DNA of 64,000 bases from Eledone cirrhosa (Eukaryota). The translations under genes were made by a program, and so were the position numbers. The DNA lies in NCBI GenBank assembly GCA_964016885.1, contig OZ024752.1, forward strand, positions 8,618,001 to 8,682,000, read 5' to 3'. This document shows positions 18,803-57,546 of this stretch, in pieces (positions within the stretch are counted from its first letter, which is position 1; the number at the start of each line of letters is the position of its first letter). Under the pieces are notes generated by a model, which did not search any database, was not told the DNA's origin, and was given only the letters and a program-made list of their open reading frames with translations.

Positions 18803-18862
18803 TCTTAACCTATAACATTTTCAACAATGTAATCCATATGTTGAAAATGTTATAGGTTAAGA
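18803..18862. repeat. Fold-back hairpin; right arm reads GAAA-ATGT-TA (HHR 3' half)
   Basis: TCTTAACCTATAACATTTTCAACA / TGTTGAAAATGTTATAGGTTAAGA. Confidence 0.75.
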
Positions 18863-18909
18863 TAAATCTCAGAAAACAATAAATCATTAAAAGGAAAACA
18901 AGAGTCATG

Positions 18910-19010
18910 ATATAAGTTAAAACAATGAAATAAAAAATCAAGTCATTAGAGATATACTTCACTGTATATCTCTAATGACTTGATTTTTTATTCATTGTTT
19001 TAACTTATAT
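18910..19010. repeat. Fold-back hairpin abutting (TA)n
   Basis: AAGTTAAAACAATGAAATAAAAAATCAAGTCATTAGAGATATAC / reverse complement, 6-nt loop. Confidence 0.85.
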
Positions 19011-19114
19011 ATATATATATATATATATATATATATATATATATATATATATATATATATATATATATATATATATATATGTATATATATATATATATGT
19101 ATATATATATATAT

Positions 19115-19308
19115 AACGAAGGAAATGTGGTAAGGAACCAGGTGAACCATAACGCACCAAAGTACTCAATACTTAGGGTAGTAGAGTGGGTAATAGGAAC
19201 GAGTAGGACCCCGACGGCTGAGCTCAAGCCGTTTCGACGGCTAATTCAGTCCAGAATTAGCCGTCGAAACGGTTTGAGCTCAGCCGTCGGGGTCCTACTC
19301 GTTCCTAT
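19115..19308. mobile_element. TA-flanked fold-back element (family F1); apex is HHR stem II, arms carry GAAAC...GTC
   Basis: Palindrome 19193-19308; homologues at 21460, 42035 and 42283. Confidence 0.75.
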
Positions 19309-19846
19309 ATATATATATATATATATATATATATATATATATATATATATGTGTGTGTGTGTATATATATATATATATATATATATATATATATATGAAA
19401 AATAAGTTTGTTTTGAAACAGCGAGCGAGTTTGGAATAGAAATAGAAGGTTTCGCCGTATTTTTTTTACTAAAGAAATTTAATCCTGATAGTGGGGTTTA
19501 GAATCCTCTAACAAATGGAAAAAGATGAGTACCAACAGCAATATCTAGAGGTTTAACCTTTTAGAATTCAAACCGGCCATATCCGACCAGAAATGTCTCA
19601 CCTCTTTCTGTTCAAACCAGTTGAAACTAGCCGCTTATTCTGATGTTAAGGTATTGTTCTCAAAATAAATAATATCAATACTCATCTTTTTACATTTCTT
19701 TTAAGAGTTCTGAACCTCACTATCAGGATAACATTTATTTAGTAAAAAGAAATACGGCAAAAGCTTCTCTCTCTCTCTCTCTCTCTCTCTCTCTCTCTCT
19801 CTCTATATATACTATATATATATATATATATATATATATATATATA

Positions 19847-20236
19847 CGAGGGCAATCCCAAAAGTAAGGCCTCCTTCCGATATTGCAACTTCCGATATTG
19901 TGGATGGTGCTTCGGGAAACCTCAGGAACCAAAATGCAGAGAGCATCCAGAGTGATCCGCCGATCTTTACGCATGTTTTCCTCCTCGGAAGGAGACCTTA
20001 CTTTTGGGATTGCCCTCGTATATAATAACTGCGCGAAATTCGCACTTGGCGGTAGCGTTTAACGGGAGCTCCATTCTCAACGGCTGCCAAGCCAAGATTG
20101 AGCATCCCAGCGAAGCGCGCGCATGCTTGTTTGGGAGTGAAGGAAGCACCAATCACAACAGTGTTGCCAACAGCCGTACGAACAGTTTCTCTGCGCCCCC
20201 ATCGCTTTGGAGACCTTACTTTTGGGATTACCCTCG
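19847..20236 (-). mobile_element. Tc1/mariner remnants: mini-element 19847-20018 with TIRs, plus left-end fragment 20025-20236
   Basis: TIR CGAGGGCAATCCCAAAAGTAAGG in TA context; transposase fragments MELPLNATAKCEFRAVI and RKDRRITLDALCILVPEVSRSTIHNI. Confidence 0.8.
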
Positions 20237-20644
20237 TATATATATATATATATGAGAAACCTCATCGCCAGTACAGCTAAATGCTGTCAAAGAAAGCGAT
20301 GGGCAGAAATGCCTCAAAGGACAGAGACCAGTGGCTAGTGTTTAACAGAGACAGGCAGATGAAATATAGAAAATATTGAAAGAGGAGGAGGAAAAAGAGA
20401 AGTGTGTTGGCGCACAGAAGTGACCTATATATATATATATATATATATATATATATATATATATATATATATATATATATATATATATATATATATATAT
20501 ATATATATGTAGAGGTTATATTTAATTTGTTGGGATTCAACAAGCTTAAAAAAATGTTTATAACTGATATAAACCACTCAACAAGTTAGTGGAGTAAATA
20601 CACAATATATTAATAAATGGAAACTATATTTAGAAAACCATATT

Positions 20645-20710
20645 TATTTTATTATACAAATTCCAAGGACAACCAAGACAAATTATGGTGCGCTTTCATC
20701 AGATAAAATA
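20645..20710 (-). ncRNA. Degenerate hammerhead ribozyme (GGAA instead of GAAA)
   Basis: tattttat-CTGATGA-aag...ctt-GGAA-tttgta-TA-ataaaata; homologue of 57547-57608. Confidence 0.55.
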
Positions 20711-54235: not shown

Positions 54236-55786
54236 TAATTGCCAGGTTTCTGAATGAAGTCAATTTACTGTCCGTAAGTTCACTGCTTATGTTAGAGGAA
54301 ATACATGAACACCACAACATCTCATTTCTAATTATATTTACAATATAATACAAGTAAATATTTGATCTTGACCTTATGTACAACACATTTTTGTTTTACT
54401 TAATAAAAATAATTGTTTCTACTTATGGCACAAGGCCAGCAATATACCAGTGTATTACTGGTACTTTATTTTATCGACCCCGTAAGGATGAAAGGCAAAG
54501 TTAACCTCGGCGGGATTTGAACTCAGACCATAAAGGGCCGTAACTCTTTGCTGCAAAGCATGGCATCAGACCCTCAACCGATACTGCCAATCCACCGCCC
54601 CTAATAAAAATAATACAAATTATTTCAAAAGTTCTCCCAGAGACTTTCATACTTAAGTACATATACTGACATAGTCATAGACACACGCTTAATGTGTACA
54701 TATAGAATGCAGACAGCATACACACATACACAAAGAAAAGACATCTATAGACATGTCTAAAGTCTGTTTTAAGCCAGAAGGCTCATTTGGCCGGTGCTTA
54801 TCCCGGTTTCATCGCAGGGTTAAACATCCAGCTATTGCTGGTACTCATTTTCAGCTGAGTAAACTGGAGCAACGTGAGATAAAGTGTCTTGCTCAAGGAA
54901 ACAACACATCACACGGTCTGAGAATTGAACTCACAGCCTTTCGATTGCAAGCCTGCTGCTCTAACCACTAAGCCATGCGCCTTCACATGAAACTTACACA
55001 TATATACACGAAACATACACATATAGATATACATATACATACACACACACACACACATATATATATATACATATACACACATATATATTTATATAGGATC
55101 GATCAACTTTCGTCAAATCAAACCGAGGAAACAATGTTCCCATTGGTCTTTCTAGTTGCTAAAACTATCTATCGGTCACAACTCCACGTAGAAGGAGCAA
55201 CGTGAAATAAAGTGTCTTGCTCAAGGACATAACGCATCGCTCGGTCCAGGAATCGAACTCACAACCTCACGATTGCTAATCCAATTCTCTAATCACTCAG
55301 CCACACGCCTTCACACATACACATATATACATATACATACACATATACACACATATACATACACATATATACAGTTGTTCAGATGCAGGTGTTCGACACC
55401 CGTAATTACCTATATTAAATAGCAGATTACACCAACCAAGTTGTACCCTGACACCCTGCTACCAAATATTCACATAAGTGTTTATGATAAGGATTCACAC
55501 TCATCCCAGATACTTATGCACGCATCTCTAAGTAGGTGCATTCTCTCTACAAATATTTCCTACATACCTTTATATATATATATATTATATATATACACAT
55601 ATATATATATATATGCATATATATATATTATGTATATATATATATATATATATATATATATATATATATATATATATATGTATGTATGTATGTATGTATG
55701 TATATATATATATGTATGTATATATATATATGTATGTATATATATATATGTATGTATATATATATGTATGTATATATATATATTAT

Positions 55787-56575
55787 ACTAGCCAAATTAC
55801 CCGCGCCTTGCTGCGTTTCACACATTTTTCTTGTAAGAAAATGATGATTGATTTAAAATCAGTGATATAATTTAGTGAGAAAAACTCCATTAGGGTGTCT
55901 TAATATTATTGAAATTTGCTGAAAGTTTGTGAATGGGCATCATATCTTGTCATTTACCTATGGTTTAAATTTCATATAAATCGAAGGGAAAACCTTTTCA
56001 GCAGGGGTTTGTGCCCCTGGGGAACCCTTTGATTAAAATTAAATATACTTATCCAAGTAATGTAGTTTCAGAATATATATGGTTATGGGGGTCTATCTCA
56101 AAAACCATAGGAGGAGTTCATGAACAAACAAACAAACAGGAACTACAACTTTATATATATTCTTGTTACAACACATCTTGTTCCATTTATTGGCCATAGA
56201 CCCCCATAATCATATATATTCTGAAACTACATTGCCCAGGGTACTTGGATAAGTATATTTCATTTTAATCAAAGGGTTCCCGGGGGCACAAACCCCCGCT
56301 AAAACATTTTCCCCATCGATTTATATGAAATTTAAACTTTTGGAAGCCCATAACTTGAGTATTGGAACCTCTATTATCACGGGGTTCTTCTATTAATTAA
56401 ACGTAAATCAACAAAAAAAAAGCACCTCTATTTTATAGTAAAATTTGGCTAATTTAGACATTTTATCTATGGCAAAACATCACTAGAATTATGACAACAA
56501 AAATCAACAAAATCATTATTTTCTTACCAAAAAAATGTGTGAAACGCAACAAGGCTCGGGTAATTCGGCTAGTAT
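55787..56575. mobile_element. Two oppositely oriented Helentron/DINE-like non-autonomous elements forming a long inverted repeat
   Basis: TACTAGCCAAATTACCCG start, (ACAA)n plus CTTTATATATAT end at about 56160; reverse copy ends CGGGTAATTCGGCTAGTA. Confidence 0.6.
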
Positions 56576-56672
56576 TATATATATATATATATATATATAT
56601 ATATATATAATATGTTGATTTAAAACTGCACTATCCACAAGTGTTTTTTAACCTTCATATCATGTCTTCCTG

Positions 56673-56739
56673 TTTTATCTGATGAAAACACAAATATTAT
56701 TGCATGATGATACTTGTTTTTGAAATGCGCATAATAAAA
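56673..56739 (+). ncRNA. Canonical hammerhead ribozyme
   Basis: ttttat-CTGATGA-aaacacaa..ttgttttt-GAAA-tgcgca-TA-ataaaa. Confidence 0.75.
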
Positions 56740-56899
56740 TACATGGAACTCTTTTAACCATCTTTTGTTCTTATATATATATATATATATATATATATAT
56801 ATAGTATAAAAAAACGAAAAATCAGTGATGCATCTGGACTCAGTTTATTGCGTGTTACAATTGTTTCTCGTGAGAAAATTTGCTCCGAAAGAATTGCAT

Positions 56900-56988
56900 G
56901 TGTCCGAAGGAACCTGTAGCCGTAGAATCAGCCAGATCCATACAGTGATCATGTCTCGAGCTACTTGCCGGCGAAACAATTGTAACAC
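56900..56988 (+). ncRNA. Hammerhead-like motif, core CCGAAGG, extended stem II
   Basis: gtgt-CCGAAGG-(62 nt)-GAAAC-aatt-GTA-acac; homologue of 59726-59813. Confidence 0.5.
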
Positions 56989-57377
56989 GCAATAAACTGA
57001 GTCCAGATGCATCACTGATTTTTCGTTTTTTTATACTATCCACACTCTGCTCTGTAAGAATATTGAGTGCTAATTTTGGCATACCGCCTATGGAAGCACC
57101 ATAGCTACCATTATACACACGTATATATATATATATATATATATATATATATATATTTAAAGGTTAAACAAGGTTCAATAAATAAATCAAAGAATGAGTT
57201 TTACAATAGATTGGAAGCACTCAACAGACATGGTTTTCCTGAGTTAATAATATTAATTCAAAATATTAACAAAATAGATATTCTTGTGATCAAGTATATT
57301 TTATTATACATATTTCAATATGACTGAATGACTGAATCTTAACCATCTACTATGTCAGGGTATGTCATACATCATCT

Positions 57378-57444
57378 TATTTTATCTGATGAGGACGTAC
57401 TGTTGAAGTTAACTCAGTACCTCTGAAATATGTATAATAAAATA
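57378..57444 (+). ncRNA. Canonical hammerhead ribozyme
   Basis: tattttat-CTGATGA-ggacgtactg..cagtacctct-GAAA-tatgta-TA-ataaaata. Confidence 0.8.
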
Positions 57445-57546
57445 TACTTGATCACAAGAATATCTATTTTGTTAATATTTTGAATTAATATATATATATA
57501 CTCAATGATATTAAATAAATGGAAACTATATTTATAAAACCATATT

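Follow-up and report, generated by a model that had tools for sequence, protein, structure and literature searches.

The insertion unit of endonuclease-bearing Penelope-like elements (PLEs), in the passages of Arkhipova et al. 2013 (PMC3846280) and Craig et al. 2021 (PMC8557442) that deal with it, contains a head-to-head inverted, 5'-truncated copy, a palindrome at the junction and a tail at one end only. Self-priming on the antisense template was proposed in 2013 for these palindromic junctions in one such passage of PMC3846280, and hammerhead ribozymes in the pseudo-long terminal repeats (pLTRs) were reported in 2014. How the inverted repeats form and what the hammerhead does are both stated to be open in the corresponding part of PMC8557442, and the passages of PMC3846280 and PMC8557442 do not tie the junction to the hammerhead. 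A literature search, in which coverage of subscription papers was incomplete, likewise gave no paper connecting the inversion junctions of PLEs with the hammerhead or with twin priming. Here we analyse 64,000 nucleotides (nt) from Eledone cirrhosa (assembly GCA_964016885.1, contig OZ024752.1, positions 8,618,001 to 8,682,000 of the forward strand), the whole of which is called the window. This AT-rich and microsatellite-rich animal DNA harbours palindromes that, judged from their sequence, are likely to be short 3'-end insertions of PLEs. The ends of their arms are enriched in a zone roughly -30 to +12 around the GAAA of the hammerhead; they do not fall on a single point, and the zone is often passed. 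The head-to-head palindrome architecture itself is already known.

In twin priming of L1, two primers from opposite target strands are used, and an inverted junction with microhomology is the result. There the two pieces do not overlap, whereas the arms described here do and thus form a palindrome. For the Anolis Poseidon element PAc it is known from in vitro work that the protein cuts and extends both strands, with cutting in AT-rich sequence (Frangieh et al. 2024, PMC11167929). Two reverse-transcription start sites bound the PAc tail, as they would in the insertions of the window, the protein was modelled as a dimer, and uncleaved RNA was used, so that hammerhead cleavage is not needed (PMC11167929). 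Inverted products or hammerhead stops are not described in the main text of PMC11167929, and we infer the step from the PAc data to a head-to-head joining of two complementary DNAs (cDNAs). Non-LTR retrozymes are, in the part of bioRxiv 10.64898/2026.07.22.740005 that describes them, likewise short non-coding elements with type I hammerheads which are thought to be PLE-derived. They form head-to-tail tandems, whereas a self-comparison of the window finds the elements here single or head to head.

The nine inverted repeats cited in a first-pass annotation of this DNA are all present at about the coordinates it had assigned to them, with 0-3 mismatched positions between the arms of each and 10 in one older copy. 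Four further palindromes with TA flanks (28855-29248, 58696-59093, 18910-19010 and 58036-58303) had not been listed there. In the following, positions are counted from G12, the G of the hammerhead GAAA, with negative values upstream; the direct arm is the one with native sequence across the apex, and the opposite one is the mirror arm. F1a to F1d are four copies of one family, and the other insertions are named by a coordinate.

19116..19308, F1a, head-to-head insertion; the long (mirror) arm carries a tail (19116-19192) next to the palindrome (19193-19308); G12 of the two hammerhead 3' halves at 19266 (+) and 19235 (-); AATT microhomology at the junction, native loop sequence continuing into the short arm.
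21460..21620, F1b, the older copy with 10 arm mismatches; G12 at 21515 (+); junction with 4 nt of microhomology; the right (mirror) arm bears the tail, whose end is not fixed.
42064..42264, F1c; tail 42064-42147, palindrome 42148-42264; arms end at -15/-14 from G12 (42190-, 42222+), with 2 extra letters between them.
42279..42482, F1d; palindrome at 42279-42406 with a right-hand tail; the direct arm begins in native loop II at 42333 (-29 from G12 at 42362), mirror arm at -9.
57157..57491, insertion 57254; the short direct arm contains an intact type I hammerhead (57378-57444, +); mirror arm begins at T-GAAA and bears a 93-nt tail.
56802..57121, insertion 56802; mirror arm begins at GAAAC, G12 at 56973; 82-nt tail on the direct arm, which has the non-canonical core CCGAAGG; unfolded homolog at 59700-59958.
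51857..52146, insertion 51897, sense strand -; direct arm begins at -11 from G12 (52021); the mirror arm begins one nucleotide beyond the predicted site of cleavage; tail of 40 nt.
45898..46156, insertion 46070; (TA)-flanked palindrome 46066-46156 with a decayed 3' half lacking G12; tail of up to 168 nt, possibly including another repeat.
18803..18862, palindrome with 24-bp arms and no (TA)n flanks; doubtful decayed hammerhead half.
28855..29391, insertion 28855; whole hammerheads with cores at 29140 (+) and 28962 (-); 143-nt tail.
58696..59149, insertion 58696; anatomy as in the others, with arms of 191 bp and a tail of 56 nt; the motif filter detects no hammerhead half.
18910..19010, palindrome flanked by (TA)n on one side; again no hammerhead half is detected.
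58036..58303, palindrome made of tail sequence alone, arranged tail to tail; homologous to the tail of 57254, with the copy beginning at the short-end site.

Ten of these insertions follow a common plan of (TA)n, short arm, junction, long arm, tail and (TA)n, F1b only partly. A tail at one end measures 40-168 nt in nine of the ten (the F1b end is not fixed), TA repeats adjoin both ends in 9/10, and in all nine insertions with both ends defined the short end lies on an internal TAT/ATA motif that is continuous with the target. The link to Penelope-like elements made in the first-pass annotation is supported by the (TA)n on both sides, the head-to-head arms and the tail on one arm. (TA)n targets are also used by the Neptune, Naiad and Hydra clades in the passages of PMC8557442 and PMC3846280 on targets; the tails given there are 30-40 bp long, as against 40-168 nt here, and here there is no open reading frame (ORF). 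The insertions are 3' stumps of 140-730 nt with the hammerhead near the 3' end: the whole core in 57254 and 28855 and the 3' half in F1, 51897 and 56802, with none found in 58696. No remnant of a reverse transcriptase or GIY-YIG domain was found in 13 translated regions or with eight motif patterns across the window, which counts against the assignment; PLE membership therefore rests on the anatomy and the hammerhead type. The F1 patterns had no match in the viral contigs, metagenome contigs and prokaryote genomes searched.

A hammerhead 3' half had been claimed directly after the apex of six palindromes. With a motif filter it is found in the four F1 copies, and 18803 and 46070 give no match; the same filter finds GAAA, stem III and UH also after the apex in 56802 and 57254 and, as had been proposed, a 3' half inside the palindrome loop of 51897. 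By chance the 3'-half motif occurs in about 3% of 30-nt stretches. In 46070 G12 is indeed missing, and stem III is non-palindromic as well. The 18803 palindrome has no (TA)n flank, and its loop has an 11-nt stretch in common with loop II of the unfolded hammerhead at 22067; it is plausibly a decayed hammerhead half, at best. An intact downstream hammerhead, expected for both 56802 and 57254, is present in 57254 (CTGATGA at 57386, 8-bp stem I), while 56802 has the altered core. In the whole window we counted 10 distinct hammerhead-like cores, compared to 0-3 in 20 local shuffles. Rfam reported no hammerhead family at E<=10 in 56610-57700 or 29088-29390, only microsatellite and hairpin noise, and none among the 150 of 395 matches listed for the window. 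The F1 family shows the type I features GAAA, stem III with A15.1-U16.1, H17, G10.1-C11.1 and stem II.

The shorter arm lies at most 15 nt from G12 in four of the five clear families (permutation p=0.083; pooled arm lengths p=0.029), and in six of seven when two decayed cases are included (p=0.004, post hoc), the 15-nt cut-off having been picked after inspection of the data. The length of the shorter arm and the distance from the 3' end to GAAA are 42/53, 66/68, 66/66, 124/114, 30/39 and 19/24 nt, and the miss is 70/162. The F1 copies end in loop II, 14-29 nt before GAAA, and the partner arm begins between -14 and +78. Thus the convergence of breakpoints claimed at first stands insofar as they are non-uniform and near the hammerhead 3' half; it does not stand for a single point at stem II/G12, as they range over -29 to +12 in the window, and in reads the partner arm extends to +78.

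For the F1 family the stretch 42050-42480 (431 bp) was compared with two raw runs of restriction site-associated DNA (RAD) reads, with the same species label and from two other individuals, and with two contig sets, one of the same species (a separate run) and one of another species. The family is very abundant, since 28,272 and 29,670 reads align to the 431 bp. In the reads F1 has two 3' ends, each followed by (TA)n: the tail end in 8482/9467 reads of the two runs, and the short end in 3341/3125 reads at 42148 and 1838/2205 at 42406. TA is the consensus at the loose ends of reads. Thirteen joints were kept from 15 of 236 joint rows and 12 of 158 letter rows, leaving out duplicates and rows which merely switch between two reference copies (four and two). 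One end is at -14 to -18 in 11/13 of these joints, and the other lies between +10 and +78; joints with both arms near -14 align straight across and are missing from the list. All seven rows with letters shown extend at most 3 native letters past the reference edge. The left piece of 7/13 joints is tail-only, as is 58036. A fall in RAD depth at about 42198, from about 9100 to 1640, was considered as a breakpoint peak; it is most likely due to a restriction site within the element (AATT or CTAG follows) and was left out of the analysis.

The reads also bear on the view that the palindromes are assembly or library artefacts. Short-read libraries can make fold-back chimeras, short-read sequencing may under-read hairpins, and no listed read or contig spans the whole of 42050-42480. 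F1-family apices are nevertheless crossed in both raw-read runs, as the first-pass annotation had required. The F1c apex is crossed by 524 reads per run, which amounts to 21% of the read depth at 42205; a single apex variant has 28 and 31 start places in the runs and is found in 97 contigs of the separate run. Apex indels at 42200-42207 are of many kinds, each in 7-39 contigs. Together with the arm mismatches and the one-sided tails, these counts make an artefact extremely improbable. Palindromes of this family type are genomic and have been formed many times.

Cleavage by the ribozyme does not set the junction. A cleavage-defined F1 junction is ruled out by the joints, none of 13 being at the predicted cleavage site +23, and a second GUC in loop II as the cut site by the spread of the ends over -14 to -18. 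The idea that the apex hairpin is the native stem II was not confirmed, because anything that stands before GAAA pairs with its own mirror in a palindrome. In unfolded F1 copies, which exist in 2355 and 2378 reads that continue upstream of 42333 (agreement 0.87-0.88), the upstream letters of the F1b/d subfamily and the strand before GAAA form a different 11-bp helix, closed by G10.1-C11.1 and with a long loop, the pairing having been judged by eye from the loose-end consensus. The native 5' strand of this stem II is missing from F1b and F1d. What forms the hairpin at their apex is therefore largely a mirror copy of the 3' strand, and their direct arms end prematurely inside loop II (-19, -29).

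These data lead us to a reading in which two first-strand cDNAs, primed from opposite strands of the cut target, would be joined head to head. The starting point would be the tail end for one cDNA and, for its partner, an internal TA-like site that forms the short end. Either or both would end prematurely, in many cases within loop II or where stem II meets GAAA, the uncleaved hammerhead fold being a frequent stopping zone for the reverse transcriptase. The 3' end of one cDNA could then pair with the other, or jump onto it, via 0-5 nt of microhomology, and repair would complete the palindrome. Two first-strand cDNAs would account for both ends, both tail placements, the tail-only pieces and the junctions, whose microhomology is 0-5 nt. 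For this joining, with the uncleaved fold as a frequent stop zone, we see about an even chance; that the hammerhead fold is what causes the stops is likely.

The mechanism preferred in the first-pass annotation was snap-back: a single cDNA which, once stalled at the ribozyme, folds back on stem II and serves as its own template. A snap-back cDNA copies only its own content, and therefore the mirror arm cannot have a longer 3' end. Of the six cases that can be oriented, three (F1a, F1b and 57254) have native loop sequence continuing into the short arm, which leaves the tail on the mirror arm, and three (F1d, 56802 and 51897) have it continuing into the long arm, with the tail on the direct arm; F1c differs by one base, and to four cases no orientation can be assigned. 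Simple snap-back fails in the first three, where the mirror arm is longer at its 3' end than the template, unless a later trimming of the arm, for instance by an endonuclease, is added. As a general route it is not supported. Self-priming has been proposed, as has a resolution of the tail by the endonuclease, in passages of PMC3846280 and PMC8557442; moreover the arms are near-identical within each copy, and the predicted DNA fold of the cDNA end has a 4-bp (F1a) or 5-bp (F1b) hairpin exactly at the junction, partly by construction as the junction letters were included. These points are countered by the loss of the native stem II 5' strand in F1b and F1d, by the lack of microhomology in F1c and only about 1 nt in F1d, and by the direct arms of 56802 and 57254, which go about 105 nt past GAAA. 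Snap-back with later trimming is therefore rather unlikely in our view. The data bear out part of the positional idea of that annotation and leave its mechanism, snap-back on stem II, largely unsupported.

Another reading gives the ribozyme no causal role. Ordinary 5' truncation or short non-autonomous source elements might place the ends there as well, because the hammerhead lies 20-125 nt from the 3' end, and the selection of cases in the first-pass annotation could add to the effect. Several findings weigh on this side, against a part of the ribozyme in stopping the cDNA. Without the decayed cases the family test, post hoc as it is, is not significant by permutation with its five clear families, and the chance frequency of the 3'-half motif has to be borne in mind. 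The 28855 insertion has an intact hammerhead in each arm and its apex 91 nt upstream of G12, in 58696-59093 and 18910-19010 the motif filter finds no hammerhead half, and three palindromes are without a hammerhead link; 28855, 58696 and 18910 are the counter-examples that speak for a ribozyme without a role. The whole hammerhead has been reverse-transcribed in nine unfolded copies, in 56802 and 57254 and in both arms of 28855. In the F1b/d subfamily 97-98% of reads at 42333 continue upstream, so the fold is no strict block. In contigs the agreement of F1a/c copies drops to 0.47 upstream of about -27, as for a short source element, which could account for the 5' ends of F1a/c; the F1 pattern would look no different if it came from such an element or from transcripts beginning in loop II. 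Part of the pile-up at -14/-15 results from where the reference ends (-15), the joint counts stand on a small share of the rows as given above, and the mirror arm of 51897 begins just past the predicted cleavage site. On the other hand, the shorter arm follows the distance between the 3' end and GAAA across unrelated families with one miss, and both F1 subfamilies end in the same loop although F1b/d has long copies that bear upstream sequence. We consider a ribozyme without causal role unlikely, and two-cDNA joining with the hammerhead fold as a stop zone remains our preferred reading.

It had also been suggested that the four F1 copies descend from one palindromic master. Their four junctions are different, and the differences between copies are mirrored in both arms: F1a, F1c and F1d show 5-10 copy-specific mirrored sites, and no arm-specific site is shared. 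Many of the differing letters are subfamily variants in 25-40% of reads, and this limits the argument, as the mirrored differences then show a common source per insertion and not one molecule or a single RNA template. From these sequences a single palindromic F1 master is unlikely. More generally, palindromic master copies, or fold-back and arm conversion at the DNA level after insertion, would fit the mismatch common to F1a and F1c, at the same stem III position and on opposite arms relative to the tail, and palindromes of non-PLE type do exist in the window (24154-24367). Set against the different junctions, the lack of shared arm-specific sites and the many apex variants in contigs (indels at 42200-42207), such an origin is very improbable. 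The stem III change stands at 19273 in F1a (short arm) and at 42183 in F1c (long arm), in one arm only; at 42183 it is found in at most about 3% of reads.

Unfolded copies with a 5' core and a 3' half, missed by the first-pass annotation, number nine in the window, with G12 at 21208, 22087, 25474, 31525, 52450, 56722, 57566, 59798 and 62387. Five of them are listed here.

56671..56740, +, unfolded intact hammerhead; CTGATGA at 56679; lies within an insertion of 162 nt that has (TA) flanks.
57547..57608, -, likewise intact and unfolded, with its core at 57600.
25399..25539, +, unfolded insertion between (TA) flanks; hammerhead 3' half and variant core CCGTCGA.
22062..22101, +, unfolded U3-A8 hammerhead; core TTGATAA.
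About 31505-31556, -, second unfolded U3-A8 hammerhead; core TTGAAAA at about 31552.

Hammerheads described earlier share with these a type I topology, G10.1-C11.1, a palindromic helix III, a large helix II, U3-A8 and mostly single dispersed copies. They differ from the long self-contained stem III of F1, from the several copies with only a 3' half and from the CCGTCGA core in two families, which the text on those hammerheads does not mention. The U3-A8 core variant is known from passages of PMC4209133 and PMC3088659. Unfolded F1 copies had been expected to read CTGANGA directly before GACGGCTA; they exist, but the upstream letters give TAAG and a different stem. Within 30 upstream letters TAA stands directly before G10.1, which fits a U3-A8 core (as at 22067 and 31552) or a dead core and does not fit a canonical CUGANGA in that position.

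The sequence CCGTCGA is found in the place of CUGANGA in two unrelated families (25399-25539, + and 59700-59830, +), the second being the homolog of 56802 with G12 at 59798, and CCGAAGG in 56904-56990 (+). Each of these cores stands between a strand of stem I and a 3' half of canonical sequence. U4C lowers hammerhead activity according to a passage of PMC3088659, and its combination with A6U does not occur in the passages of that paper on hammerhead variants. CCGTCGA may be either a variant core or a dead one. A minimal hammerhead family (CTGATGA...GAAACGTT) is present in three copies, at 21188, 52430 and 62367 (+); none is folded, and two of them end at (CA)n instead of (TA)n.

Some local rearrangements adjoin the insertions. 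The left arm of 28855 contains a 72-bp tandem duplication (28941-29084) with 4-nt microhomology and one end in hammerhead loop II. At 42030-42090 the F1c tail end has a 28-bp tandem duplication, and F1c and F1d adjoin within one short TA run. At 57982-58303, pieces of the 57254 family that consist of the tail alone surround TA runs in head-to-head and tail-to-tail orientation. Three palindromes (24154-24367, 30937-31096 and 55963-56337) are not PLE-like and were kept out of all counts. At 24065-24367 two adjacent fold-backs with a near-same loop are located in a repeat resembling a short interspersed nuclear element, with no TA flanks and no hammerhead core, and 55784-56575 is an element like a miniature inverted-repeat transposable element, with terminal inverted repeats, situated in (TA)n and containing the internal inverted repeat 55963-56337. 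Elsewhere in the window there are fragments resembling, by eye, ORFs of non-LTR retrotransposons (3345-3896, +; 4303-6445, -; 41146-41628, -) and long arrays of short-period tandem repeats (11043-15471 and 36000-39383).

At a density of about ten of these insertions in 64 kb, and given the great abundance of the F1 family, the genome would offer thousands of natural junctions. Counts of the arm that bears the tail, and of the 5' end of the arm relative to GAAA, would separate snap-back from the joining of two cDNAs and would test the roadblock. Tentatively, and with more doubt than confidence, we suggest that the uncleaved hammerhead may be a structural stop for the Penelope reverse transcriptase which, in a dimeric twin-priming reaction, would set the meeting point of the two cDNAs and thereby the size and the centre of the inverted pLTR. 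If this is true, the ribozyme would have a non-catalytic job, which would explain the persistence of variant and probably weak cores (U3-A8, CCGUCGA) in high-copy families.

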